NCBI RefSeq assembly: GCF_048595155.1
Contig: NZ_JBMDXN010000005.1
Location: 21,015 to 85,014 of the forward strand
Direction of reading: 5' to 3'
From: Sphingomonas sp.
Lineage (GTDB): Bacteria > Pseudomonadota > Alphaproteobacteria > Sphingomonadales > Sphingomonadaceae
Length of the DNA stretch: 64,000 nt
The notes under the pieces are model-generated. The model had not been told where the DNA came from. It searched no databases and was given only the letters and a program-made list of their open reading frames with translations. Positions 14-30,857 of this stretch are shown in pieces (position 1 is the stretch's first letter; each line of letters starts with the position of its first letter). The position numbers and the translations under genes are program-made.

Positions 14-997
14 ATGACCGCCGTACATTCCACGCGCATGCTGATCCTGGGTTCCGGCCCGGCTGGACTTTCTGCCGCCATTTACGGCGCGCGTGCAGGG
101 CTGGCGCCGATCGTCGTGCAGGGCATTCAGCCAGGCGGGCAGCTCACCATCACGACCGATGTGGAAAATTACCCCGGCTTTCGTGAGGTCATTCAGGGCC
201 CGTGGCTGATGGAGGAGATGCAGGCGCAGGCCGAGCATGTCGGCGCGCAGATGATGTGGGACATGATCGTCGAGGTCGATCTGTCGGAACGGCCGTTTCG
301 TCTGAAGGGCGACGGCGGCGCCGTCTATGTGTGCGACACGCTCGTGATTGCGACCGGCGCGCAGGCCAAGTGGCTGGGCGTTCCTGGCGAGCAGGAGCTC
401 GGCGGCCGCGGCGTATCCGCCTGCGCGACCTGCGACGGTTTCTTCTACCGCGGCAAGAAGGTCGCGGTGATCGGCGGCGGCAATACCGCGGTCGAGGAGG
501 CGCTCTACATGACCAATCACAGCCACGACGTGACGCTGATCCACCGCCGCGATTCGCTGCGGGCGGAAAAGATCCTGCAGGATCGGCTGTTCGCGCATCA
601 CGGCATCCACCCCTTGTGGAACAAGGAAGTGGTCCGCTTCGTCGGCGACCATGAAAGTGGCCTAGTCGGGATCGAGCTCAAGGACACAAAAAGCGGCGAA
701 ACGTCCTTGCTGGAAGTGGACGGCGGCTTCGTCGCGATTGGCCACCATCCCGCAACGGAGATGTTCGCTGGCCAACTCGAACTGGACGATGGCTATATCA
801 AGGTCACGCCAGGCACCGCCAAGACCAGCATTCCAGGCGTGTTCGCGTGTGGCGACGTGATGGATAAACATTACCGCCAGGCAATCACCGCCGCGGGCAC
901 CGGCTGCATGGCGGCACTCGACGCTGAGCGCTTCCTGCAGGAACAGGACTTCCCGGTCGCCGAGGACGTCAAGCTTCAGTCGGTGGCGGCGGAGTAG
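14..997 (+). CDS. trxB: thioredoxin-disulfide reductase
   Basis: 327-aa ORF; FAD motif GSGPAG near the N-terminus, redox-active CATCDG, second dinucleotide motif GGGNTA; length typical of TrxB. Confidence 0.95.
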   Translation: MTAVHSTRMLILGSGPAGLSAAIYGARAGLAPIVVQGIQPGGQLTITTDVENYPGFREVIQGPWLMEEMQAQAEHVGAQMMWDMIVEVDLSERPFRLKGDGGAVYVCDTLVIATGAQAKWLGVPGEQELGGRGVSACATCDGFFYRGKKVAVIGGGNTAVEEALYMTNHSHDVTLIHRRDSLRAEKILQDRLFAHHGIHPLWNKEVVRFVGDHESGLVGIELKDTKSGETSLLEVDGGFVAIGHHPATEMFAGQLELDDGYIKVTPGTAKTSIPGVFACGDVMDKHYRQAITAAGTGCMAALDAERFLQEQDFPVAEDVKLQSVAAE

Positions 998-1055: not shown

Positions 1056-1186
1056 CTTCGACACGGCTCAATGGAAGCGTTTAAGGCGCCGGAAATCAGA
1101 TCGGTGCCTGCATCGCAGGGACTTATATGCAATCGCTAGTTCGTTGCCGATGCGCTCTTATGTGGACGTTGAACGAGACGATTCAA

Positions 1187-2125
1187 TTAGCGGCGTTGAT
1201 TTAGCGGCATAGGCTTTCGAGCTGCCTGAAATCTGTCATTCAAGTTTTCTAAGCTGTCAGCGACGTCACCAGCGATCCCCACGGCGCCAGCCTTCATCCA
1301 ATCCGTGGTTCCATGCCAAAGGCGACGAGCAACTCCAAATTGAGGCATGTCGCGCACCCTATGGTGGAGCCTTTGATGTTTTTCTCGGTCTAAAACCTTC
1401 AAAAATAGGGGATTGTTCTTCCAATGCTTCACATTGCGAGCGATCCCGTTCAGCTCAAATACGTGATGAACGTCTTGGAGGTTTGATGCCAGACCGAGCT
1501 TATGCATTTTCCGCTGAACTGCATAAGCCTTGGGAACCCAGGTCTTCGATGCCCGGGCTATTTTTGCGGCGCCTCTCACTGCCTTGATGCCAACTCCGAT
1601 AGGAGTAACATCCGATACGGCCATTGCCGTGTTGAACGCAGCCGACCCATAATTCCCCTCCTGAAGGTCAGCGACTGCGTCCCATGCTGGTCCTATTACA
1701 GGTATAAACCCCTCCGCGAAGTTTGGCCGTGCTATTTTGGGTCCTGCCTGGAAGTCTTGAAATCTGCCGGCAATACCCAAACTGGGTCGGTGGCGCGGAG
1801 CTCCTTGCGTTAGTGTGTTTGGATTTTTATAAGCTTCTGCTCGCTGCCCCACCGAAGCGGGTTGGAAAGGCTTGAAGTGTCCGCGTATCTCCTGTGCGCG
1901 AAGGTAAGCCCCTTTTATCGGCGGCGCGTTTAGGTCAGGGAGTCGTGGTTGTGCGATATCTCGATTGGGTTGACCTCCCGGATTAGTTGCTGGCGGCAAT
2001 AGAATCGGTCGTTTCATTTCGCCAAACCGCGCAAGTAATCCGCCAATCCTTTCGCGCGGTTGCTGCTGGTCCTGAAGTGGGGAAGACCGTTCCCGGATTT
2101 TGCCGTCGCCTCTGTTCCGCTTCAT
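1187..2125 (-). CDS. hypothetical protein, polymorphic-toxin-like (PT-TG-like segment plus C-terminal HH..N..H nuclease-like motif)
   Basis: ORF in an AT-rich islet; ATG at 2125 has GGAG 5 nt upstream (the track's longer version starts at GTG 2251); segment FIPVIGPAWDAVADLQEGNYG..VTPIGVGIKAVRGAAK; C-terminus DVHHVFELNG..KNNPLFLKVLDREKHQRLHH; no signal peptide. Confidence 0.6.
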   Translation of the reverse strand: MKRNRGDGKIRERSSPLQDQQQPRERIGGLLARFGEMKRPILLPPATNPGGQPNRDIAQPRLPDLNAPPIKGAYLRAQEIRGHFKPFQPASVGQRAEAYKNPNTLTQGAPRHRPSLGIAGRFQDFQAGPKIARPNFAEGFIPVIGPAWDAVADLQEGNYGSAAFNTAMAVSDVTPIGVGIKAVRGAAKIARASKTWVPKAYAVQRKMHKLGLASNLQDVHHVFELNGIARNVKHWKNNPLFLKVLDREKHQRLHHRVRDMPQFGVARRLWHGTTDWMKAGAVGIAGDVADSLENLNDRFQAARKPMPLNQRR

Positions 2126-2270
2126 AGTTACTCCATCAACTGCATGCGGATGCCTCGGCTGCTCACCTGACGTGACCACCGACACAGCGCATAATGAATT
2201 ATAGGGAATACCAGCCGCTCGTTTGCTCGCGACGGTCGCTTTTTGTCGCACAAAAACGCCAAAAAGTCAA

Positions 2271-2285
2271 GAACAAAAACAGAAC
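2271..2285 (-). promoter_or_regulatory. SOS-box-like direct repeat GTTC-N7-GTTC upstream of the islet ORF
   Basis: Minus strand reads GTTCtgtttttGTTC, immediately followed by TTGACT (-35-like); A/T-rich context raises the chance-match risk. Confidence 0.35.
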
Positions 2286-2361
2286 AAACGCTACTGCGGA
2301 GACGGAAGTTCAGTCGCATACCTCGTCGATCGCGCATCTGCGCGGCTACGAACCAGGCAGG

Positions 2362-3099
2362 CTAGTAACGCGCGCCCACGAAATACAGCCCGTCCGCAGG
2401 TGCGTTAAGCCCAAGCGCGGCTCGGTCTCGGGCTTCCAGCGCTTGCCTCATGTCCTCCACACTCCATTGACCTTGGCCGACCAGGCCGAGGCACCCGACC
2501 ATAGAACGGACCTGATGATGCAGGAAGGAGCGGGCGGAGGCTTCGACCAGAACATGATCGCCGTCGCGCCGCACATCGAGCCGGTCGAGCGTCTTGATCG
2601 GGCTTTCCGCTTGGCAGTGGGCTGAGCGGAACGTGGTGAAATCGTGTCGGCCGACCAGCCTTTGCGCGGCTTCGTGCATTGCCGCTGCATCAAGCGGGCG
2701 AGCGATGCGCCAGGCTCGTCCTGCTTCGAGGGTGAGCGGCGGCCGACGGTTGATGATGCGGTAGAGATAGTCGCGGCCGACGCAGGAGAAGCGGGCATGC
2801 CAATCGCCTGGCACAATCTCACAGCCAAGGATGGCGATTGGCAGCGGCTTCAACAGCCCGTTCAGCGCTTCCATTAGGCGGAAGGGCGTGAATGGCTTGG
2901 TGATGTCGAGGTGCGCCGCCATCGCCAGCGCGTGCACGCCAGCGTCGGTTCGGCCCGCCGCGAACAGGATCGGCGTCTCGCTGGTGGCGGTGGCTGCGGC
3001 ATCCTCGATCGCCTGCTGGACCGATGGGCCATGCGCCTGGCGTTGCCAGCCCATGAAAGGGCGGCCATCAAATTCCACCGTCAGGCGGAAGCGCGTCAT
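2362..3099 (-). CDS. truA: tRNA pseudouridine(38-40) synthase
   Basis: 245 aa; N-terminus [21 protein letters not shown] and catalytic-Asp context [11 protein letters not shown] typical of TruA; start overlaps the fmt stop (ATGA). Confidence 0.93.
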
Positions 3100-5177: not shown

Positions 5178-5711
5178 ATGGCTATTCGTCCGATCATCGA
5201 GGCGCCCGACCCCCGGCTGCGCGTGAAATCCACTCCTGTCGAAGCGGTGGATGATGATCTGCGCGCACTGATCGCCGACATGTTCGAAACGATGTACGAT
5301 GCGCCCGGGATCGGCCTTGCCGCGATCCAGATCGGCGTGCCCAAGCGCGTATTGGTCATCGATCTGCAGGAGGAGGAAGGCCCGGACGGCCAGCCGATCC
5401 GCAATCCGTTGGTCTTTATCAATCCAGAACTGTCAGATCCTTCGGCCGACAATAACATCTATAATGAAGGCTGCCTGTCGGTGCCTGATCAGTTCGCCGA
5501 GGTCGAACGGCCAGCAACGATCCATGCGAAATGGCTCGACGAGAATGGCGTGGAGCATGACGAGCTGATCGAGGGGATGCTGGCGACGTGTCTCCAGCAC
5601 GAGATGGACCACCTCGAGGGCATCTTGTTCATCGATCACCTGTCTCGCCTGAAGCGGGAAATGGTGCTCAAGAAACTGGAAAAAGCGCGGCGCCAAACCC
5701 GCGCCGCCTGA
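5178..5711 (+). CDS. def: peptide deformylase
   Basis: 177 aa with the three Def motifs GIGLAAIQ, EGCLSVP, QHEMDHLEG. Confidence 0.95.
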   Translation: MAIRPIIEAPDPRLRVKSTPVEAVDDDLRALIADMFETMYDAPGIGLAAIQIGVPKRVLVIDLQEEEGPDGQPIRNPLVFINPELSDPSADNNIYNEGCLSVPDQFAEVERPATIHAKWLDENGVEHDELIEGMLATCLQHEMDHLEGILFIDHLSRLKREMVLKKLEKARRQTRAA

Positions 5712-5739
5712 CAAGCGCATTCAGGGTTCCCAGCGCCTC

Positions 5740-6333
5740 TTAAAAACGGGCGCTAAGGCTCATCCCGGCAGTTCGGCTATCGCCCCACGGCACGAGCCGG
5801 ACATTCTGGTTGCGGCGTGCGGTCAGCAGAAATCCGCTGCCCGTTCCGATGGCAGCACCGGCAACGACATCATACCAATGGTGCTTGCGAGCCTCTACCC
5901 GAGCCGTCGCGACGAAGCTCGCCAGCGCAAATGCAGGCAAGCCTGCTTTCCAACCGTAGCGGTTTTCCAGGCTTGCCGCGGCAGCAAACGCCTCGGAGCT
6001 ATGGCCGGAAGGGAAACTTTTCCGATCGCTGCCGTCCGGACGCCGTTCCGGAAAGAGGCGCTTCAGGCCATAGGCAGCGCCGCCCGCGAGCAAGATGCTC
6101 CCGCCGGCCTGCAGACTGCCGTTCCAATCCCCTTGCACCGCAGGTACCCCCAACGCTGCGGCCAGCAGTGCGTCGCGACCGATATCGCTCGCTTGCCCCC
6201 ACCCATGCGCACCAGCCGCGGCCGGGGAGGCCAGCAGGAGCAAGCCGGATGCGCAATAGGTGCCGAAGCTGCTACGCAGGGCCGGTCGCGCTACGGCGCG
6301 CAAGTAAGTTGGGCTCGATGCAATCGGTTCCAT
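5740..6333 (-). CDS. PAP2-family phosphatase (membrane/periplasmic)
   Basis: Motifs K-x6-RP (KRLFPERRP), PSGH, and R-x5-H-x3-D (ARVEARKHHWYD); start set at ATG 6333, TTG 6399 also possible. Confidence 0.75.
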   Translation of the reverse strand: MEPIASSPTYLRAVARPALRSSFGTYCASGLLLLASPAAAGAHGWGQASDIGRDALLAAALGVPAVQGDWNGSLQAGGSILLAGGAAYGLKRLFPERRPDGSDRKSFPSGHSSEAFAAAASLENRYGWKAGLPAFALASFVATARVEARKHHWYDVVAGAAIGTGSGFLLTARRNQNVRLVPWGDSRTAGMSLSARF

Positions 6334-6489
6334 GCCGTCACGATCTGCCGAAATTCTCCGGGCGGGGGAAGACGCATCTGTTAACGTGACAAAAATCAAA
6401 TGATCTGAATATATTGGTGGGATCTGACGAAGCTATTCTGTCGGTAGCGTGCAGCGTTGCGTCTGCCCCGATAGTGCGGCTGGAGCGGT

Positions 6490-6993
6490 TTGGTGAGATA
6501 TTTGCTGCTCGGGGCCATTGCGTTGGGAGCAGGCGCGCAGGCGCAGGTTCCGGCCCATGGGGGTGTCCGGTTGAGCAGGGCAATCGGCATCGTGGAAAGC
6601 CACGTTTCGGGACGCGCGATCGAGGCCGATGTGCAGAAGCGCGGCGGCCGCCTCGTCTATGAGATCGACGTGGTGCGTGGGCCCATATTGCACCGCGCGC
6701 TTGTCGATATCCAAAGCGGGAAGTTGATCTCTGTGACAAGGCCGCGGCTGGAAAACTGGACATTGCCCTGGCTGGACCCGGAGCGTCTGCGCGAAGGGGC
6801 CCGCGCCGTGCCGCTCGCTGAGCGTTTGGAACTGCTCGAGGAACGAAATCATGGTGAGGTCCGCGACGTGGATTTCGCGGTGGAACATGGCCGGGGCGTG
6901 TTTGAGATCGAGTTCGCGACCGCGGCCGGCATCGGCAAGGTGCGGATCGATGGCGTCTCGGGGAAACGCCTCGAGTTGGCGGAGAGCGACTAA
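6490..6993 (+). CDS. PepSY-domain periplasmic protein
   Basis: Signal peptide MVRYLLLGAIALGAGAQA, two PepSY-like repeats (GRAIEADVQKRGGRLVYEIDVV; GEVRDVDFAVEHGRGVFEIEF); directly upstream of a two-component pair. Confidence 0.7.
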   Translation: MVRYLLLGAIALGAGAQAQVPAHGGVRLSRAIGIVESHVSGRAIEADVQKRGGRLVYEIDVVRGPILHRALVDIQSGKLISVTRPRLENWTLPWLDPERLREGARAVPLAERLELLEERNHGEVRDVDFAVEHGRGVFEIEFATAAGIGKVRIDGVSGKRLELAESD

Positions 6994-7010
6994 CCTGCGA
7001 TAGCGCCCAC

Positions 7011-7688
7011 GTGCATATTCTGTTGATCGAAGACGACGCCGACGTTGCCGCCCATGTCGCCAAAGGCCTGCGGGAGGCTGGTCATCTGGTCGAGCCGGCC
7101 GCGGATGGACGCGAGGGCCTGCTGAAGGCGGCGGCGGACCGCTACGACGTGATCGTGCTCGATCGCATGCTGCCGAAGATTGACGGGTTGAAGATCCTTC
7201 AGACCATCCGCGCAACCGGTGACACCACCCCGGTCATGATCCTCAGCGCTCTAGGCGATATCGACGAGCGGATCAGGGGATTGCGGGCGGGGAGCGACGA
7301 TTATCTGCCCAAGCCGTTTGCGCTGTCGGAGCTGGTCGCGCGCGTCGAGGTATTGGCGCGTCGTGCGCCCCAGATCGCCCAAACGACTGAATTACATGCG
7401 GGCGACGTGGTGATTGATCTGCTGGGTCATAGCGTCACCCGCAACGGACGCCGGATCGAGCTTACCCAGCGGGAATTCCGCATCCTGGAATATCTGGTCC
7501 GTAACGCGGATCGTGTGGTCACCCGCTCCATGCTGCTGGAACATGTCTGGGATTATGCGTTCGATCCGCAGACCAACATCATCGATCAGCACGTCAGTCG
7601 GCTACGGCAGAAACTGGATCGCGATTCGGATTGGCCGTTGATCGAGACGGTGCGTGGCACGGGATATGTGGTGCGGTCGCGTCGGTGA
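7011..7688 (+). CDS. OmpR-family response regulator
   Basis: 225 aa; receiver (LLIEDD..VIVLDRMLP..KPF) plus winged-helix C-terminus (TVRGTGY); GTG start. Confidence 0.9.
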   Translation: MHILLIEDDADVAAHVAKGLREAGHLVEPAADGREGLLKAAADRYDVIVLDRMLPKIDGLKILQTIRATGDTTPVMILSALGDIDERIRGLRAGSDDYLPKPFALSELVARVEVLARRAPQIAQTTELHAGDVVIDLLGHSVTRNGRRIELTQREFRILEYLVRNADRVVTRSMLLEHVWDYAFDPQTNIIDQHVSRLRQKLDRDSDWPLIETVRGTGYVVRSRR

Positions 7689-9055
7689 GGCGGCTTCTCC
7701 GCAGCCTCTCGTTTCGACTCGCCATCCTCTACGCGGGCCTGTTCACGGGCTCGCTGTTGCTCCTGTTCACAGGCTATTATGCCATCGCCATCCGTCTGCC
7801 GCTGCATCGCAGCGAATTGATCGTACAGCGCGAAGCTGCGGCCCTGCAAAATTCGTACATCGTCGATGGCGCGGCCGCCCTGACGGCGCGGCTCAAGGCA
7901 CGTGATCAGGTCCATGATCACAGCAAGGCGTTCCACGCCTTCATTGATCGGGACGGCAGGGTGGTGACCGCCAACTTGCCCAGCTGGCCTAAGATGGCCC
8001 GCAGCGGATGGCAGCGCATCGAGGCGGACCTGTTCGTCGATGGAGACGAAACCGACTTCGAGGCCCTGGCGATCGATCGGCGCTTTGCCGACGGTGCGCG
8101 CCTGATCGTCGGCCGCGACGTCGGCAATATCAGCGAGCGCGAGGCCGCGCTCAAATCGACCGCACTCTTCATGATCGGTGCCGCGGTGGTGCTCGGGTTG
8201 CTAGGCGGCATCTTCATGAGCCGCTCCATCGCGTACAGGCTCGACGCGGTCAGTGCGACGGCACGGCACGTGATGGCCGGCGATCTCACCCAGCGCGTGC
8301 CCTTGCAAGGCAGCGGAGATGACTTTGACCGGCTGGCGGAAACGCTCAATCTGATGCTGACGCGCATCGAAGGCGCGATGGATGCTGTCCGCCGTGTATC
8401 CGACAGCGTCGCCCACGAACTGCGAACCCCGCTGACCCGGTTGCGCAGCAAGCTGGAGGACGTGCCGGACACGGCATCACCGGCCCAGGCTCACGCGGCG
8501 GTGGACGACGCGCTGCAGGAAATTACGCGTATGGAGACGATCTTCGCCGCGGTCCTGCGTATCTCCAGGATCGAGGCGGCGCGTCACAATGCGGCCATGC
8601 AAACCGTGGCGTTGCCTGCCTTGATCGAGGATGCGGCAGACTTTTACCGGCCGCTGGCCGAGGCCAAGCAGATCGCGCTGCAAGTGAGCGCGGAACAGGG
8701 GGTGGAGGCGATCGGAGATCCCGATCTGATCTTCCAGGCGCTTACCAATCTGCTCGATAATGCGATCAAATATATCCCGGCCCGCTCCTCCATCATCATC
8801 AGCGCACATGTTTCAGAGGCGAGTGTCGTGGTCGCGGTTACGGACGATGGGCCCGGCGTCGACGATGTATATCTCGACAAGCTGACGGAACGCTTCTTCC
8901 GGGCGGCTCCGGAAGGCGTGAGCGGCATCGGCCTGGGGCTCAGCCTCGTCGCTGCCATCGCGGCATTGCACGGCGACGCGCTCCGTCTGACCAACCAGCG
9001 TCCCGGCTTATCGGCGGAAATCCGATTAAAGCGACATTTCGCCCGGCATTCCTAA
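7685..9055 (+). CDS. sensor histidine kinase (HAMP-HisKA-HATPase)
   Basis: Start moved to GTG 7685, overlapping the RR stop (GTGA); two TM segments, H-box SDSVAHELRTPLT, N/G boxes (LLDNAIKY, GIGLGLS). Confidence 0.85.
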   Translation: MRRLLRSLSFRLAILYAGLFTGSLLLLFTGYYAIAIRLPLHRSELIVQREAAALQNSYIVDGAAALTARLKARDQVHDHSKAFHAFIDRDGRVVTANLPSWPKMARSGWQRIEADLFVDGDETDFEALAIDRRFADGARLIVGRDVGNISEREAALKSTALFMIGAAVVLGLLGGIFMSRSIAYRLDAVSATARHVMAGDLTQRVPLQGSGDDFDRLAETLNLMLTRIEGAMDAVRRVSDSVAHELRTPLTRLRSKLEDVPDTASPAQAHAAVDDALQEITRMETIFAAVLRISRIEAARHNAAMQTVALPALIEDAADFYRPLAEAKQIALQVSAEQGVEAIGDPDLIFQALTNLLDNAIKYIPARSSIIISAHVSEASVVVAVTDDGPGVDDVYLDKLTERFFRAAPEGVSGIGLGLSLVAAIAALHGDALRLTNQRPGLSAEIRLKRHFARHS

Positions 9056-9059
9056 GGGG

Positions 9060-9452
9060 TCAATTCGCCAGCGTAGCCAAAGCGCGCTGGCAATCTTCTA
9101 CACATTCGCGGCACATCTCGGCGCAGCGCTTGCAATGATCGTGGTCGTGCTTCTCGCACTCCTCGGCGCACCAGGTGCAGATGTCGATGCAGGCGCGTAG
9201 CATCGCACCCAGCGCCGCGTCGTTGTTACCGGTACGACGCACCGCCATGCGCGACGTTGCGGTGCAGGCGTCCGCGGCGTCCATGCACACGCGGATGCAC
9301 TCACGCATGTCCATGTCCTCAGCCGAGCAGGCGTCGGCGCACGATGTTGCGATGACAGCGCAATACATGGCATGCTTCGCCGCCTCCGCCAGCGGCTCGT
9401 TGATATGGCCGTCGGCAGAAGGGTGCGACGCGATCATCTTGCGGATGGACAT
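9060..9452 (-). CDS. cysteine-rich four-helix-bundle (DUF326-type, putative copper-binding) protein
   Basis: 130 aa from ATG 9452 (MSIRKM); repeated Cys motifs CADACSAE..CIRVCMDAADAC..CIDICTWCAEEC..CKRCAEMCRECVEDC. Confidence 0.75.
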   Translation of the reverse strand: MSIRKMIASHPSADGHINEPLAEAAKHAMYCAVIATSCADACSAEDMDMRECIRVCMDAADACTATSRMAVRRTGNNDAALGAMLRACIDICTWCAEECEKHDHDHCKRCAEMCRECVEDCQRALATLAN

Positions 9453-9564
9453 AGGCTCTCTCCCGGCTTGTTCTTTCCCAACACTGCGCCGTCCTGCCTG
9501 TTCCGTCCAGACGGCATCGCGCCACCCGATCAAGTCGCTTGAGCCTCACGCCCGGTGCAGCTAG

Positions 9565-9579
9565 GTTCGCATTTCGTTC
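9565..9579 (+). promoter_or_regulatory. alphaproteobacterial-type LexA (SOS) box GTTC-N7-GTTC upstream of rmuC
   Basis: GTTCgcatttcGTTC ending 13 nt before the rmuC ATG. Confidence 0.55.
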
Positions 9580-9592
9580 CGGGTGAGAAGAT

Positions 9593-10933
9593 ATGGCTGT
9601 GGCGCTGATAATTGGTTTGATGGCGTTGTTCGCCGGGTTCGCGGTCGGGTGGTTCGCCCGGTCCGGCGCGGCCGCGAAGGCGGAGGCTCAGGCAGCAGAA
9701 TTGCCGCCGCTCCGCGCGCAGCTGGCGGAGCTCACTACGACGCGAGACACGGCGTTGCGAGACCTCGCCGTGGAGCGGGCCTCCATGAGCGAGCGCGCCC
9801 AGGCGTTCGAGGCGCGCCTGGCGGAATTGCGCGAAGCCAAGGATGTGCTTGCCGCTCAGTTCAACGAGGTTGGGAGCAAATTGCTGGCTGATGCCCAGCG
9901 GCAATTCCTCGAACGCGCCGATCAGCGGTTCGCGCAAGCGGGGGAGAAGAACGATGCCCAGCTCAAAGCTTTGCTGACCCCAGTTGAGACGACGCTGAAG
10001 CGCTATGAGGAAGGTCTGGCCAAGGTCGAGAAGGACCGCATCGGCAGTTACGAGGCGTTGAAGGAAGCTGTCACAAGCCTGGCGCAAGGCAATGATATCG
10101 TGCGGAAAGAGACGGCGCGTCTAACCAACGTCCTGCGGTCCAGCCCAAAACATCGCGGCCGCTGGGGCGAGCAGCAATTGCGCACCATTCTTGAATCGGC
10201 CGGCCTCGCGGAAAATGTCGATTTTGAGCTGGAGACGTCCATCACCGACGGCGATCGGCAGTTGCGCCCCGATTGTGTGATCCGGCTGCCCGGCGGACGC
10301 TGCATCGTCATCGACGTGAAATGCCCGCTGACCGCCTTCGAGCAAGCATTCGATGAGGAGGATGAGGTGCGGCGCGGCGAGTTGTTGCTCGCACATGCTG
10401 CCGCAATGCGCTCTTATGCCACGGATCTGGGGCGAAAATCCTATTGGAAGCAGTTCGATCTCTCGCCCGATTTCGTGATCATGTTCATCCCGGGCGAGCA
10501 TTTCCTGTCGGCGGCGGCCGAGCGCGCGCCGGACCTGATCGAGCAGGCGTTCCGCGGCGGCGTGATCATCGCGTCGACGATCAACATGCTGGCGCTGGCG
10601 AAAGTGATGGCCGGAATGTGGCGGCAGGAAGGGCTGGCGAAGCAGGCGGAGGAGGTCGGCCGCCTCGGCAAGGAACTCTATTCCCGACTGCAGACGATGG
10701 GGCGCCATGTCGAAAAGCTCGGCCGCAACCTCAATCAGGCGACCGGCGCCTACAATGATTTCGTCGGCAGCCTGGAAAGTCAGGTGATGACCCAGGCCAA
10801 GCGCTTCGAAGCGCTCAGCGTGGAAACGGGCGGTAAGACGATCGAGCCATTGCCGATGATCGAAACCGCTGTCCGCCCGCTCGCCAAGCTCTCCACGGCG
10901 CACCACACGGATTATCCCGAGGCGGCGGAGTAG
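9593..10933 (+). CDS. rmuC: DNA recombination protein RmuC
   Basis: 446 aa; N-terminal TM, long coiled-coil, C-terminal RmuC nuclease-like region (RGRWGEQQLRTILESAGL..PDCVIRLPGGRCIVIDVKCP). Confidence 0.9.
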   Translation: MAVALIIGLMALFAGFAVGWFARSGAAAKAEAQAAELPPLRAQLAELTTTRDTALRDLAVERASMSERAQAFEARLAELREAKDVLAAQFNEVGSKLLADAQRQFLERADQRFAQAGEKNDAQLKALLTPVETTLKRYEEGLAKVEKDRIGSYEALKEAVTSLAQGNDIVRKETARLTNVLRSSPKHRGRWGEQQLRTILESAGLAENVDFELETSITDGDRQLRPDCVIRLPGGRCIVIDVKCPLTAFEQAFDEEDEVRRGELLLAHAAAMRSYATDLGRKSYWKQFDLSPDFVIMFIPGEHFLSAAAERAPDLIEQAFRGGVIIASTINMLALAKVMAGMWRQEGLAKQAEEVGRLGKELYSRLQTMGRHVEKLGRNLNQATGAYNDFVGSLESQVMTQAKRFEALSVETGGKTIEPLPMIETAVRPLAKLSTAHHTDYPEAAE

Positions 10934-11006
10934 GGGTGTCTTAGCGCCGCCTCGCCGAGGTCAGGAATTGCTCGATGGCGCGCCGCCCATGCCTGTCATG
11001 ATCGGC

Positions 11007-11669
11007 TCACCCCACCCTCATCGATAATTCCACATCCGGGCCGAAGGGAACGGACAGATAGCCGCCATTGGCCGTCCGCACCCGCGCCAGGTAATCCGGG
11101 CTGTGATCAGCGTTATCTGCAATGATCAACGCTCCGGGGCGCAGCTGGCCTTCGACCAATTTGAGAATATCGGGATAGAGGCCCTTGGCGCCATCCAGCA
11201 GCAGCATGTCGATCGCCTCAGGCACATCGTCCGCCAATGTCGCCAGCGCGTCGCCCTCGCGAAACTCAACCAGGTCGGCGAGGCCGGCCGCAACCAGATT
11301 GGCCTTGGCGCGTGTCACCTTGGACGGCTCGAATTCGGTGGTGATGAGCCGGCCGCCGCCATTGTCACGCAGTGCCGCCGCGAGGTGCAGTGTCGATACG
11401 CCGAAGGAGGTGCCGAACTCGACGATCGTCTGCGCCCCGATGCTGCGCGCGAGCATGTACAGCAACGTTCCGGTTTCGCGTGAGACCGCAAGCGGCGCGT
11501 CCTTCAGCAGGCCATAGAAACCGCGATACTCCGTCTTGCTCTGCATGAGCCGTTGGCGCTCCTCGGTCGACAGGCTGTCGATCCCCGGGATGTCGAGCCG
11601 CCATGACCGGTCCGCATCCAGCAATCCGTCAAGGATCGCGGCCACCGGCGCGTTATTCAGTGTTGTCAT
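11007..11669 (-). CDS. class I SAM-dependent O-methyltransferase
   Basis: 220 aa; SAM motif I IVEFGTSFGVS, acidic loop TTEFEP, LLLDGAK typical of COG4122-type O-methyltransferases. Confidence 0.8.
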   Translation of the reverse strand: MTTLNNAPVAAILDGLLDADRSWRLDIPGIDSLSTEERQRLMQSKTEYRGFYGLLKDAPLAVSRETGTLLYMLARSIGAQTIVEFGTSFGVSTLHLAAALRDNGGGRLITTEFEPSKVTRAKANLVAAGLADLVEFREGDALATLADDVPEAIDMLLLDGAKGLYPDILKLVEGQLRPGALIIADNADHSPDYLARVRTANGGYLSVPFGPDVELSMRVG

Positions 11670-11710
11670 CGGATATCTCCCATGTCGCCAGATTGTTGCG
11701 ACACCGGTAA

Positions 11711-11745
11711 AATGCGATTAATTCGTCACCTTTTCTAATCGCATT
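11711..11745. promoter_or_regulatory. perfect 10-bp inverted repeat, candidate TetR operator
   Basis: AATGCGATTA-N15-TAATCGCATT in the 89-bp divergent region between the methyltransferase and the TetR gene. Confidence 0.5.
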
Positions 11746-11758
11746 CCGGAAGGCTGGT

Positions 11759-12397
11759 ATGGGCTCGCACGCAAAACCGCCGATTTCCTTGATAAAGGAA
11801 CCTAAGCAGGCCCGTTCGAATGGGCTCGTCGCGGCCGTGCTGGAAGCCGCTACTCAGGTTTTGGCGGAAGAGGGCGCGCAGCGTTTCACGACGGCGCGAG
11901 TCGCCGAAAAGGCCGGTGTCAGCATCGGCTCGCTCTACCAATATTTTCCGAACAAGGCGGCGATCCTGTTCCGGCTGCAAAGCGATGAATGGCATGAGAC
12001 GGCCGATATGCTGCGGTCGATCCTGGAAGACGGGTCACAGCCGCCTTTTGCCCGCGTGCGCACGCTGGTCCATGCCTTCATTCGCTCGGAATGCGCCGAA
12101 GCCGGTATGCGGACCGCACTGGCAGACGCGGCACCGCTGTATCGCGACGCGCCGGAAGCCAAGGCAGCAAAGGCGGCGAGCCGCGGGATCGTTCTTCGCT
12201 TCCTGCAGGAAGCTCTCCCCAACGTCTCGGGGACGGAGCGTGAATTGGCCGCCGACCTGATCAAGACGACGCTCAGCAGCGTCGGCGCCCACTTCTCGGC
12301 CACGCCCCGTACCGACCGCGAAATGACCCGCTATGCCGACGCGATGGCGGACATGTTCTGCGCCTATCTCGCGCGCCTCGAAGACGCAGGGCGCTAG
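11759..12397 (+). CDS. TetR/AcrR-family transcriptional regulator
   Basis: 212 aa; N-terminal HTH (FTTARVAEKAGVSIGSLYQYFPNKAAIL). Confidence 0.85.
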   Translation: MGSHAKPPISLIKEPKQARSNGLVAAVLEAATQVLAEEGAQRFTTARVAEKAGVSIGSLYQYFPNKAAILFRLQSDEWHETADMLRSILEDGSQPPFARVRTLVHAFIRSECAEAGMRTALADAAPLYRDAPEAKAAKAASRGIVLRFLQEALPNVSGTERELAADLIKTTLSSVGAHFSATPRTDREMTRYADAMADMFCAYLARLEDAGR

Positions 12398-29735: not shown

Positions 29736-29750
29736 GTTCACTTCCTGTTC
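29736..29750 (+). promoter_or_regulatory. alphaproteobacterial-type LexA (SOS) box upstream of dinB
   Basis: GTTCacttcctGTTC ending 21 nt before the dinB ATG; dinB is a classical SOS gene. Confidence 0.7.
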
Positions 29751-29771: not shown

Positions 29772-30857
29772 ATGGACGGGGAGGAGCAGCCCATACGCAA
29801 GATCATCCATATCGATATGGATGCCTTCTATGCGTCGGTCGAACAGCGCGACAATCCGGACCTGCGCGGCAAGCCCGTGGCGGTCGGGGGCACGCGCGAA
29901 CGTGGTGTCGTCGCTGCGGCAAGTTATGAGGCACGCGTCTATGGCATACGATCGGCGATGGCGTCGGTCACTGCACGCCGCCGCTGCCCCGACCTGATTT
30001 TCGTCAAGCCGCGTTTCGAGGTCTATTCCGCCATCAGCCGGCAGATCCGCGCCATTTTCGCCGACTATACCGAAGCGATCGAACCCCTCTCGCTGGACGA
30101 GGCCTATCTCGACGTATCGGGCGCGGCGTCGGCGCGGGCGATCGCGCAGGAGATACGGGCGCGGATCAAGGCGGACGTCGGCCTAACGGCGTCGGCGGGC
30201 GTGTCGTACAACAAGTTCATCGCCAAGCTGGCGTCGGACCAGAACAAACCGGACGGATGCTGCGTCATTCCGCCCGAACGCGGGCCGCTATTTGTCGAGA
30301 GCCTTCCCGTCAAACGCTTCCACGGCGTGGGGCCGAAAACGGCGGAAAAGATGGGGCGCCTGGGCATCGAAACGGGCGCGGACCTGAAAGCGCAGACCCT
30401 GCAATTCCTGGAAGCTCAATTCGGCAGTTTCGCGGCCTACCTCTATGGGGCTGCACGCGGGATCGATCATCGCCCGGTGCGATCCAATCGTATCCGCAAA
30501 TCCGTCGGGGCCGAACGCACCTTCTTCGAGGATATCAGCGACCCGGCAGAACTTGCGACAGCATTGGAGACCGTGCTGGATGCGCTGATGGAAAGGATCG
30601 CGCGGGCGGGGTCAGTCGGGCGGACGGTGACGCTGAAGGTAAAATATTCCGACTTCCATCAGATCACCCGCGCACGGAGCTTCACGGTTCCGATCAGTGA
30701 ACGCAGCGCAATCAGTGCGGCCGGGCAGGGGCTGCTGTCCGCCTTGTGCCCCGTACCACGCGGTGTGCGGCTGTTGGGCCTTACCCTGTCCGCTCTGGTC
30801 GAGGATGAGGGCGAGGACGACCCGTTGAGCAAGGCGCAGCTTGGCCTTTCGCTGTGA
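29772..30857 (+). CDS. dinB: DNA polymerase IV
   Basis: 361 aa; IIHIDMDAFYASVEQRD, SLDEAYLDV, Y-family palm/fingers/little-finger layout. Confidence 0.93.
   Translation: MDGEEQPIRKIIHIDMDAFYASVEQRDNPDLRGKPVAVGGTRERGVVAAASYEARVYGIRSAMASVTARRRCPDLIFVKPRFEVYSAISRQIRAIFADYTEAIEPLSLDEAYLDVSGAASARAIAQEIRARIKADVGLTASAGVSYNKFIAKLASDQNKPDGCCVIPPERGPLFVESLPVKRFHGVGPKTAEKMGRLGIETGADLKAQTLQFLEAQFGSFAAYLYGAARGIDHRPVRSNRIRKSVGAERTFFEDISDPAELATALETVLDALMERIARAGSVGRTVTLKVKYSDFHQITRARSFTVPISERSAISAAGQGLLSALCPVPRGVRLLGLTLSALVEDEGEDDPLSKAQLGLSL

Follow-up and report, generated by a model that had tools for sequence, protein, structure and literature searches.

Polymorphic-toxin domains are usually pictured as secreted weapons with an antidote gene always at their side. 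Here, we describe a toxin family that departs from this picture, starting from one gene in a 64,000-nucleotide (nt) stretch of Sphingomonas sp. DNA (NCBI RefSeq assembly GCF_048595155.1, contig NZ_JBMDXN010000005.1, positions 21,015 to 85,014 of the forward strand), which we call the window and whose own numbering we use throughout. The toxin gene (1187-2125, minus strand) lies between trxB and truA and encodes a standalone protein of a polymorphic-toxin C-terminal domain family that had not been annotated. The family has no Pfam model, and wherever a homologue carries any source name at all, that name is "hypothetical protein". Its standalone copies in Caulobacterales and Sphingomonadales stand systematically behind operators of the SOS repressor LexA, and one clade, to which the window gene belongs, has been kept over long evolutionary time without a linked antidote; both this family-wide LexA wiring and the long-lived immunity-less clade appear to be new. 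The explanation to which we lean, be it with reserve, is that the gene would encode a DNA-damage-induced nuclease toxin without linked immunity, domesticated for self-destruction or abortive infection in the manner of the Caulobacter endonuclease BapE.

Several described systems share part of these features. In the nuclease colicins, toxin and immunity are both under SOS control. Rhs proteins carry HNH/EndoVII-fold toxins, namely Tox-AHH, Tox-GHH, Tox-SHH, and Tox-HNH (Zhang et al. 2012, PMC3482391), the first of which has the signature [AG]HH, N, H, H, Y. Tox-REHH (Rehh) is Rhs-linked as well and has no detectable family match, yet it was proved to be an HNH-type DNase, neutralized by acidic immunity proteins of several unrelated families (bioRxiv 10.64898/2026.09.22.753552). 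In Caulobacter crescentus, BapE (CCNA_00663) is an SOS-induced "bacterial apoptosis endonuclease" with a GTTCN7GTTC box and late induction; it is proposed to break up the chromosome of its own cell once damage is severe, and no antidote has been described for it (PMC12700426, PMC13004042). The same GTTCN7GTTC motif is the published LexA operator of Caulobacter (PMC12700426). Finally, two reports describe higBA of C. crescentus as a LexA-regulated toxin-antitoxin system (10.1101/2020.07.22.216945, PMC13384398).

The LexA-type operator and putative promoter of the toxin gene

Upstream of the toxin gene, the LexA (SOS) box GTTCTGTTTTTGTTC (2271-2285, minus strand) is an exact match to GTTCN7GTTC. 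It directly abuts the -35 element TTGACT (2265-2270) of a putative promoter (2242-2270, minus strand), in which a 17-nt spacer leads to the -10-like element GCGACAAA (2242-2249), and it is located ~145 nt upstream of the ATG. We infer these promoter elements from the sequence itself; a simple sigma-70 scan did not flag them.

The box is conserved far beyond the window. When the upstream regions of three orthologous loci are aligned, one strongly conserved block stands out, GTTC-N7-GTTC-TTGAC, in which the box is invariant. Family-wide the pattern is the same: upstream conservation is confined to the box with its adjoining -35 and does not extend to the flanks, and GTTC-N7-GTTC-TTGAC is followed ~17 nt on by GtGAGA or GCGACA. 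An exact box on the coding strand precedes the toxin in 44 of 62 distinct homologous loci, where 0.77 would be expected from background, and the count rises to 53 of 62 with one mismatch allowed. A second exact box occupies the ~60-base pair (bp) spacer between the toxin and its partner gene (see below) in 26 of the 54 loci that have both. No LexA box was found in the Rhs locus. The standalone cassettes of the family are thus very probably LexA-repressed. The initial annotation of this region, made without database searches, had rightly seen a toxin-like gene but overlooked the operator on its promoter. Because the box is conserved, the reading of the gene shifts from a silent orphan weapon to a DNA-damage-induced nuclease.

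Exact boxes are few in the window, three in total with 1.4 expected by chance. One of the other two (29736-29750, plus strand) lies 21 bp upstream of dinB (29772-30857), which encodes DNA polymerase IV and is a canonical SOS gene. The remaining one (9565-9579, plus strand) lies 13 bp upstream of rmuC (9593-10933) and is also present in Sphingomonas sp. ASY06-1R (locus L001, 517-531); judging by this box, rmuC looks like a member of the SOS regulon in this Sphingomonas. The toxin gene itself is a candidate addition to the same, little-studied regulon.

The toxin protein and its predicted nuclease core

A word-indexed search returned 39 close homologues of the window protein, and a profile search of 1.8 billion cluster representatives returned 573. 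Direct scans of the window protein against Pfam, NCBIfam, PADLOC, PHROGs, and PDB sequences yielded nothing usable. What the members share is a core of ~190 amino acids (aa), composed of a helical part, the pattern HH-x15-N-x12-H, and a WHGTTDWMK motif. The same core makes up the extreme C-terminus of the Rhs proteins P0141 (2125 aa), P0157 (1758 aa), P0167 (1367 aa, carrying 12 RHS repeats), and P0176 (2164 aa). It starts 16-75 aa past the Rhs core-end motif P....DP.G in three of these four and ~180 aa past it in P0157; Rhs_assc_core was detected in 6 of 120 family members. As the core ends Rhs proteins, it has the defining architecture of a polymorphic-toxin C-terminal domain, and the earlier description of the product as polymorphic-toxin-like stands. 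The window protein itself has no secretion or trafficking module according to Pfam, NCBIfam, and PADLOC, making it a standalone, cassette-type member.

Three parts can be distinguished in the protein. The N-terminal extension (residues 1-120; 1766-2125, minus strand) is disordered, P/R/G/Q-rich, and specific to a partner-less "long-form" clade; it is absent from the short forms of the family or far shorter in them. The initial annotation had called the N-terminus disordered and rich in R, K, P, and Q, which agrees with the AlphaFold2 (AF2) model, where residues 1-117 have a predicted local distance difference test score (pLDDT) below 50. By composition, P, R, G, and Q are abundant in this stretch, and its net charge is +12. 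The helical subdomain (residues 121-195; 1541-1765, minus strand) follows the pattern RPN..FIPVxGPAWDAxADLQxGNYGxAAFNxAMAxxD..P.G..K, with R133, P134, P142, G145, D153, and N165 invariant or nearly so. It is helical in the model (pLDDT 56-70) and Gly/Ala-rich, and its maximum Kyte-Doolittle hydropathy of 1.15 is below transmembrane level. This subdomain always accompanies the catalytic part, also in the Rhs proteins, where it comes directly after the Rhs core, and it stands at the start of the released module. The third part is the probable HNH core (residues 196-285; 1271-1540, minus strand), with H220/H221 at 1463-1468, N237 at 1415-1417, and H250 at 1376-1378.

Both peptide segments quoted in the initial annotation, one from the helical subdomain and one from the C-terminus, are present in the translation, yet the families to which they had been likened fared differently. 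The supposed resemblance of the helical segment to the pre-toxin module PT-TG is not borne out by Pfam profiles: PF14449 gave no match at E<=1 for the window protein and none at E<=0.1 in the 120 members. The likeness of the C-terminus to the AHH/GHH/SHH families survives as a likely HNH-like core, without a profile match, as no member of the 120 matched Tox-AHH, Tox-GHH, Tox-SHH, Tox-HNH-HHH, or related Pfam (E<=0.1) or NCBIfam models. Even the Tox-AHH signature is only partial, since (V/I)HH, N237, and H250 are (nearly) invariant, H254 is partly conserved, and no conserved Y was observed. The toxin family fails both the PT-TG and the named Tox-HNH profile tests and is best treated as new, inside a superfamily that is known.

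We consider it quite probable that this core is an HNH-type DNase. H220, H221, N237, and H250 are all invariant in a 40-sequence set; in the 120-member alignment, H221 is still invariant and the other three are conserved in at least 90%. In the AF2 model, residues 180-280 have a pLDDT above 90, and strands 217-221 (DVHHV) and 242-246 together with helix 247-254 form a beta-beta-alpha unit. H220 and H221 end the first strand, N237 precedes the second, and H250 lies in the helix, which is the layout of a His-Me finger as predicted. In such a His-Me finger (HNH) metal-dependent nuclease, H221 would serve as the general base, and H220, H250, and N237 would organize the metal site. The core is also basic, with an isoelectric point (pI) of ~10.

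Comparisons with known nucleases point in the same direction without reaching significance. With the full-length model, Foldseek gave noise only, so residues 181-285 were re-folded alone. Against the PDB, the best E value was 2.9, with Cap5-HNH, I-PpoI, and Cas8-HNH among the weak matches, and against BFVD ~26 of the top 50 matches were HNH endonucleases (best E 0.34). In PHROGs, HNH endonuclease was the commonest annotation across the 120 members, with 13 members and 5 further matches in three other HNH families, although these 18 matches have E values of 0.006-1 and are below threshold. Aligned by hhalign with the ColE9 DNase, the family HH falls on H102/H103 at a probability of 0.3%, which is not significant, and a PDB profile search with the 120 members gave only a spurious match to a designed repeat protein. 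The check by AlphaFold and Foldseek that had been proposed for the HNH fold thus gave a mixed result: the beta-beta-alpha unit and the HNH-dominated weak matches speak for it, and none of the matches is significant.

Some observations concern the termini and distant members of the family. Many short forms share the motif MPRGQPRxVPDPxGxLYD within their first 25 residues. This motif, which may act in export, as a degron, or in partner binding, is missing from the window protein. Some long forms contain a Tat-like RRxF motif, which the window protein lacks and which no hydrophobic region follows. One or two distant members weakly match the DUF2380/SitA6 polymorphic toxin lipoprotein family of myxobacteria (E 0.004-0.012), which hints at a possible link to toxins delivered by outer-membrane exchange.

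Partner genes in relatives and the history of the islet

Most relatives of the window gene are not alone. In the short forms (213-260 aa), a gene of 146-154 aa follows the toxin after ~60 bp in 59 fetched loci, mostly from Phenylobacterium and other Caulobacteraceae, together with Sphingomonas sp. SRS2 and a metagenome-assembled genome (MAG) of Myxococcota. The 146-154-aa proteins have no Pfam model and are acidic (median pI 4.95). In an Rhs locus (L087), a 146-aa gene follows P0167, and its product shares 32% identity (E 7e-14) with the partner that accompanies standalone toxins. Going by this shared position and sequence, we take the 146-154-aa partner to be the cognate immunity family of the toxin core. 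Most short forms lacking this first partner are adjoined by a second type, a DUF1963/YwqG-like gene of ~215-290 aa, as seen in L061 (6577-7455), L010 (6804-7451, minus strand), L045, and L046 (1431-2288).

The relatives show further variation around these genes. Both partner types stand in tandem in L046. L061 has a LexA-type box (6554-6568, opposite strand) separating its toxin gene from the DUF1963-like one. Next to a 327-aa toxin in a Phenylobacterium zucineum MAG (L024), the immunity gene (6828-7378) is split into two frames, by either a frameshift or an assembly error. Another MAG (L012, 1-7482) has its toxin-immunity pair immediately behind a phage-like stretch that includes an integrase (5652-6770) and several small phage-type genes, which suggests that some toxin cassettes travel as prophage or island cargo. 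In L087, a second Rhs gene ending in Tox-REase-7 (8581-12104) follows, the typical arrangement of a tandem Rhs toxin array.

Neither partner is found in the window. A hidden Markov model built from 51 partner proteins and run against the six-frame translation of the 64 kb gave a best E value of 4.4 (controls, 1e-28 to 1e-68), and the DUF1963-like partner was not found there either. The earlier statement that no credible immunity ORF (open reading frame) follows the toxin, with only ~190 bp left before trxB, is therefore confirmed within the 64 kb (189 bp, no partner homologue), and "orphan" is correct as far as this stretch shows. When a neighbor-joining tree is rooted on the Rhs domains, the loci without either partner, five in all (the window, L001, L084, L003, and L014), form one clade, and all have the long N-terminal extension. 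This long-form clade comprises the window, Sphingomonas sp. ASY06-1R, S. crusticola, and soil metagenome relatives.

The gene lies in an inserted islet (998-2361) that spans all sequence between the stop codon of trxB (14-997, plus strand; Pyr_redox_2, E 1e-51) and that of the convergent truA (2362-3099, minus strand; PseudoU_synth_1, E 2.7e-35), a gap of 1364 bp. The same insert is found at the same site in Sphingomonas sp. ASY06-1R (L001; TruA 89% identical) and S. crusticola (L084; TruA 87%), with toxin orthologues that share 72.7% and 55.9% identity with the window protein, respectively. By contrast, a metagenome relative (L085; TruA 81% identical) has an empty site, in which the truA and trxB stops are 4 bp apart (5738-5743). 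This empty site supports the initial annotation of a horizontally acquired single-gene islet and settles the presence-or-absence comparison that it had proposed (empty in L085, occupied in L001 and L084); the notion of a single, isolated occurrence had to be given up, as the toxin ORF is syntenic in the two closest species. The junction varies in yet another way, for Sphingomonas sp. MMS24-J13 (L086) has a PAP2 phosphatase gene here (5738-6325); insertions may thus recur at this point, which lies between two convergent terminators.

The synonymous divergence (dS) of the toxin gene from its ASY06-1R and S. crusticola orthologues is 0.50 and 1.53, whereas that of the flanking genes is 0.34-0.82 and 0.75-1.38. 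As these values are alike, they fit one old insertion followed by vertical descent. The core (residues 121-280) has a ratio of nonsynonymous to synonymous divergence (dN/dS) of 0.07-0.12, as low as in truA and fmt, and the gene is thus being maintained rather than decaying; the first 120 residues have a dN/dS of 0.53-0.74. The Shine-Dalgarno (SD) sequence and ATG are conserved in the three species as well. In short, the islet is a 1.36-kb foreign insert, gained once by the ancestor of three Sphingomonas species and inherited vertically in them, with its core under strong purifying selection. In a motif-limited scan of 185,579 species genomes, only two Sphingomonas species were recovered, the S. 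crusticola copy being missed by the scan. A tblastn search of phage and plasmid collections found no toxin homologues; the gene is chromosomal.

The composition of the islet agrees with such an origin outside the host. Its GC content is 53.8%, against a window mean of 63.3% (standard deviation 2.3% for 1364-bp windows), and only 6 of 6264 windows of that size are as GC-poor, all 6 of which overlap the gap. The GC content at third codon positions of the toxin ORF is 0.505, compared with 0.71-0.81 in five neighboring genes. The trait is shared by the family: in 53 of 55 loci, the GC content of the toxin core falls below that of the remaining locus (by a median of 4.7 points), and the window and ASY06-1R are the extremes. 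A low-GC islet exactly filling the trxB-truA gap had been proposed from hand counts, which were exact (24 of 60 G+C at 1381-1440, 41 of 60 at 2881-2940); the windowed GC analysis, in line with the proposed check, identifies the gap as the GC minimum of the 64 kb. "AT-rich" nevertheless applies only in a relative sense, the islet having 53% GC overall and 40% just locally.

Within the islet, the toxin ORF is the only sizeable one and the sole credible gene. It starts, as annotated, from the ATG at 2125-2123, preceded at 5 bases by the SD sequence GGAG (2134-2131), and has 312 codons plus a stop codon, so the product is 312 aa long and not 313, a figure that counts the stop codon. In the 189 bp between its stop and that of trxB lies a hairpin (1021-1061; inverted repeat with 18-nt arms, 89% complementary), a likely bidirectional terminator that is kept in ASY06-1R with base changes in the arms and is weakly alignable in S. 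crusticola. No meaningful flanking repeats, tRNA genes, integrase, or Rfam matches were found, leaving the islet without a mobility signature and in line with the earlier remark on the lack of an integrase and flanking repeats. An upstream 69-aa ORF (2128-2337) was rejected, as it spans the promoter and the alignment of the window with ASY06-1R contains indels of lengths not divisible by three. A structure in the 5' untranslated region (UTR) was also rejected, its fold being no more stable than that of shuffled sequences (z-score -0.94). In the minimum-free-energy fold of this predicted 5' UTR (2131-2210, minus strand), the SD sequence GGAG pairs with an upstream UUCC.

Proposed role and comparison with known systems

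The explanation to which we lean can be laid out as a chain of conditional steps. With its LexA operator abutting the -35, the toxin gene would be silent in normal growth. DNA damage would stimulate cleavage of LexA through RecA and switch the gene on. Since neither type of linked immunity occurs in the clade, the producer would have no antidote, and induction would expose its own DNA to the nuclease. Upon irreparable damage, or when phage or prophage activity triggers the SOS response, the cell would degrade its own DNA and that of the invader. The gene would then be a suicide nuclease, derived by domestication from a cassette of toxin and immunity genes that already stood under SOS control in its ancestors. 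Not all parts of this chain deserve the same trust. LexA control of the promoter and the metal-dependent HNH nuclease nature of the core have good support. The role itself, damage-triggered self-destruction or abortive infection, is argued by analogy with BapE and is put forward tentatively. Likewise tentative is the broader claim that in the long-form clade an interbacterial toxin domain was turned into an immunity-free, LexA-gated suicide nuclease, and that an entire family of Rhs-type toxin-immunity cassettes in Caulobacterales and Sphingomonadales is SOS-wired.

Several points weigh against this chain. The conservation of the box is partly inherited along with the gene and does not represent independent origins, and both LexA binding and damage induction of the toxin gene are predictions from DNA letters alone. 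No match to a nuclease, in structure or profile, is individually significant. The absence of immunity covers the 64-kb window, and an unlinked immunity gene may exist elsewhere in the genome. Likewise, the comparison with BapE is based on the published description and promoter. Lastly, the partner has its own SOS box in relatives, and such co-induction fits a colicin-like bacteriocin better than suicide; the long-form clade could retain the role of a colicin-like, released bacteriocin.

That last possibility is the most serious rival, albeit an unlikely one in our judgment. The protein would leave the cell by lysis or through an exporter and kill neighbors that are not immune, the immunity gene would be located elsewhere in the genome, and the disordered N-terminus would serve import, as do the unstructured translocation domains of colicins. 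The use of the core by Rhs interbacterial toxins suits this idea, as do the pairing with acidic immunity in relatives (with an SOS box before the immunity gene in about half of the paired loci) and the variable, low-complexity N-termini, which are found in polymorphic toxins too. Yet the 64 kb hold no immunity homologue of either type, the islet provides no lysis gene, receptor-binding domain, secretion signal, or apparatus, the protein has 312 aa compared with >500 aa for colicins, and its N-terminus evolves almost neutrally (dN/dS 0.5-0.7). If the gene works inside the producer, it might also be a domesticated, non-lethal SOS nuclease for repair or recombination of damaged or branched DNA, with the "immunity" proteins of relatives acting as regulators. 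The LexA operator shared with dinB and rmuC and the strong purifying selection on a core without linked immunity would agree with this; however, in Rhs toxins this domain does the killing and has a homologous partner encoded directly downstream, and its distribution is patchy and its composition foreign, so that we regard a repair nuclease as improbable.

A toxin that is not a nuclease would use HH/N/H for another metal-dependent activity, or its helical hairpin (residues 140-190) to act on membranes. We think this very improbable: it is true that no nuclease match is statistically significant and that the Gly/Ala-rich helical subdomain includes a moderately hydrophobic hairpin at 140-190, but the hydropathy maximum of 1.15 stays below transmembrane level, and the spacing of the motif, the predicted beta-beta-alpha unit, the pairing of a basic core with an acidic partner, and the HNH-dominated matches all point to DNA. 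The least credible reading is that of a decaying, non-functional remnant of a toxin-immunity cassette that has lost its immunity gene. A lone gene of foreign composition and without a partner might look like one, and decay does occur occasionally in relatives, as in the frameshifted partner of L024. Against it, the frame is intact in three species diverged to dS 0.5-2, the dN/dS of the core (0.07-0.12) is comparable to that of truA and fmt, and catalytic residues, SD sequence, ATG, promoter, and SOS box are all conserved.

How, then, does the DNA-damage-induced nuclease that we favor relate to known systems? In its presumed action it is closest to the HNH-fold domains of Rhs and T6SS toxins and to nuclease colicins, and in its regulation to colicins, BapE, and higBA. 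Like Tox-AHH, Tox-GHH, Tox-SHH, and Tox-HNH, the family has its core at the C-terminus of Rhs proteins and shares the xHH...N...H signature, the occurrence as standalone cassettes, and, in relatives, a small immunity gene downstream. It differs from them in its obligatory 75-aa helical subdomain before the catalytic part, in the LexA box that controls standalone alphaproteobacterial copies, and in the window copy, which has neither an immunity gene nor a trafficking domain. Tox-REHH was considered as the same family and rejected, as the conserved residues differ (R46, H52, E53, H102, and H121 in Rehh; HH-x15-N-x12-H here). The two unrelated partner families found here resemble the situation in Rehh, whereas Rehh pairs with Imm22 and no SOS control of its toxin gene has been described.

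Within the Alphaproteobacteria, higBA is a precedent for a chromosomal pair of toxin and antidote under SOS control. HigB is an RNase of a type II toxin-antitoxin system with an autoregulating antitoxin. Here, on the other hand, the toxin belongs to a polymorphic-toxin family, the partner gene of relatives often has its own second LexA box, and the partner is absent in the window. With BapE, the window gene has in common that a (here predicted) alphaproteobacterial DNase gene stands behind a GTTCN7GTTC box without a linked antidote. The promoters are not alike, as that of bapE has its box ~40 nt from the ATG, no clear -35, and DriD sites, while the window box abuts a TTGAC -35 and precedes the ATG by ~145 nt. 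None of the toxin loci matches the published bapE promoter, two metagenome scans with that promoter gave no Caulobacter locus and either nothing or only chance 20-mers, and none of the named top matches of the family comes from C. vibrioides.

Colicins E2, E7, and E9 and the S-type pyocins offer the other close parallel, combining an HNH DNase killing domain (predicted here) and an acidic immunity protein (present in relatives) with expression triggered by DNA damage (here read from the operator). They differ from the islet, which is without receptor-binding or translocation domains, lysis gene, and immunity, and the window protein has no sequence match to the colicin DNases in the PDB. The window gene is furthermore chromosomal, and the family is absent from the plasmid and phage collections searched. 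If SOS control and DNase activity are both true, the family would be a new HNH toxin family with two immunity families and a chromosomal, alphaproteobacterial counterpart of colicin-type regulation. It would also offer a tractable case for how a toxin becomes a self-directed factor for damage-triggered death or abortive infection, a question that has so far been asked largely of BapE. Should the suicide reading be true as well, the family would connect polymorphic toxins with bacteriocin-style regulation and with programmed death of the BapE kind.

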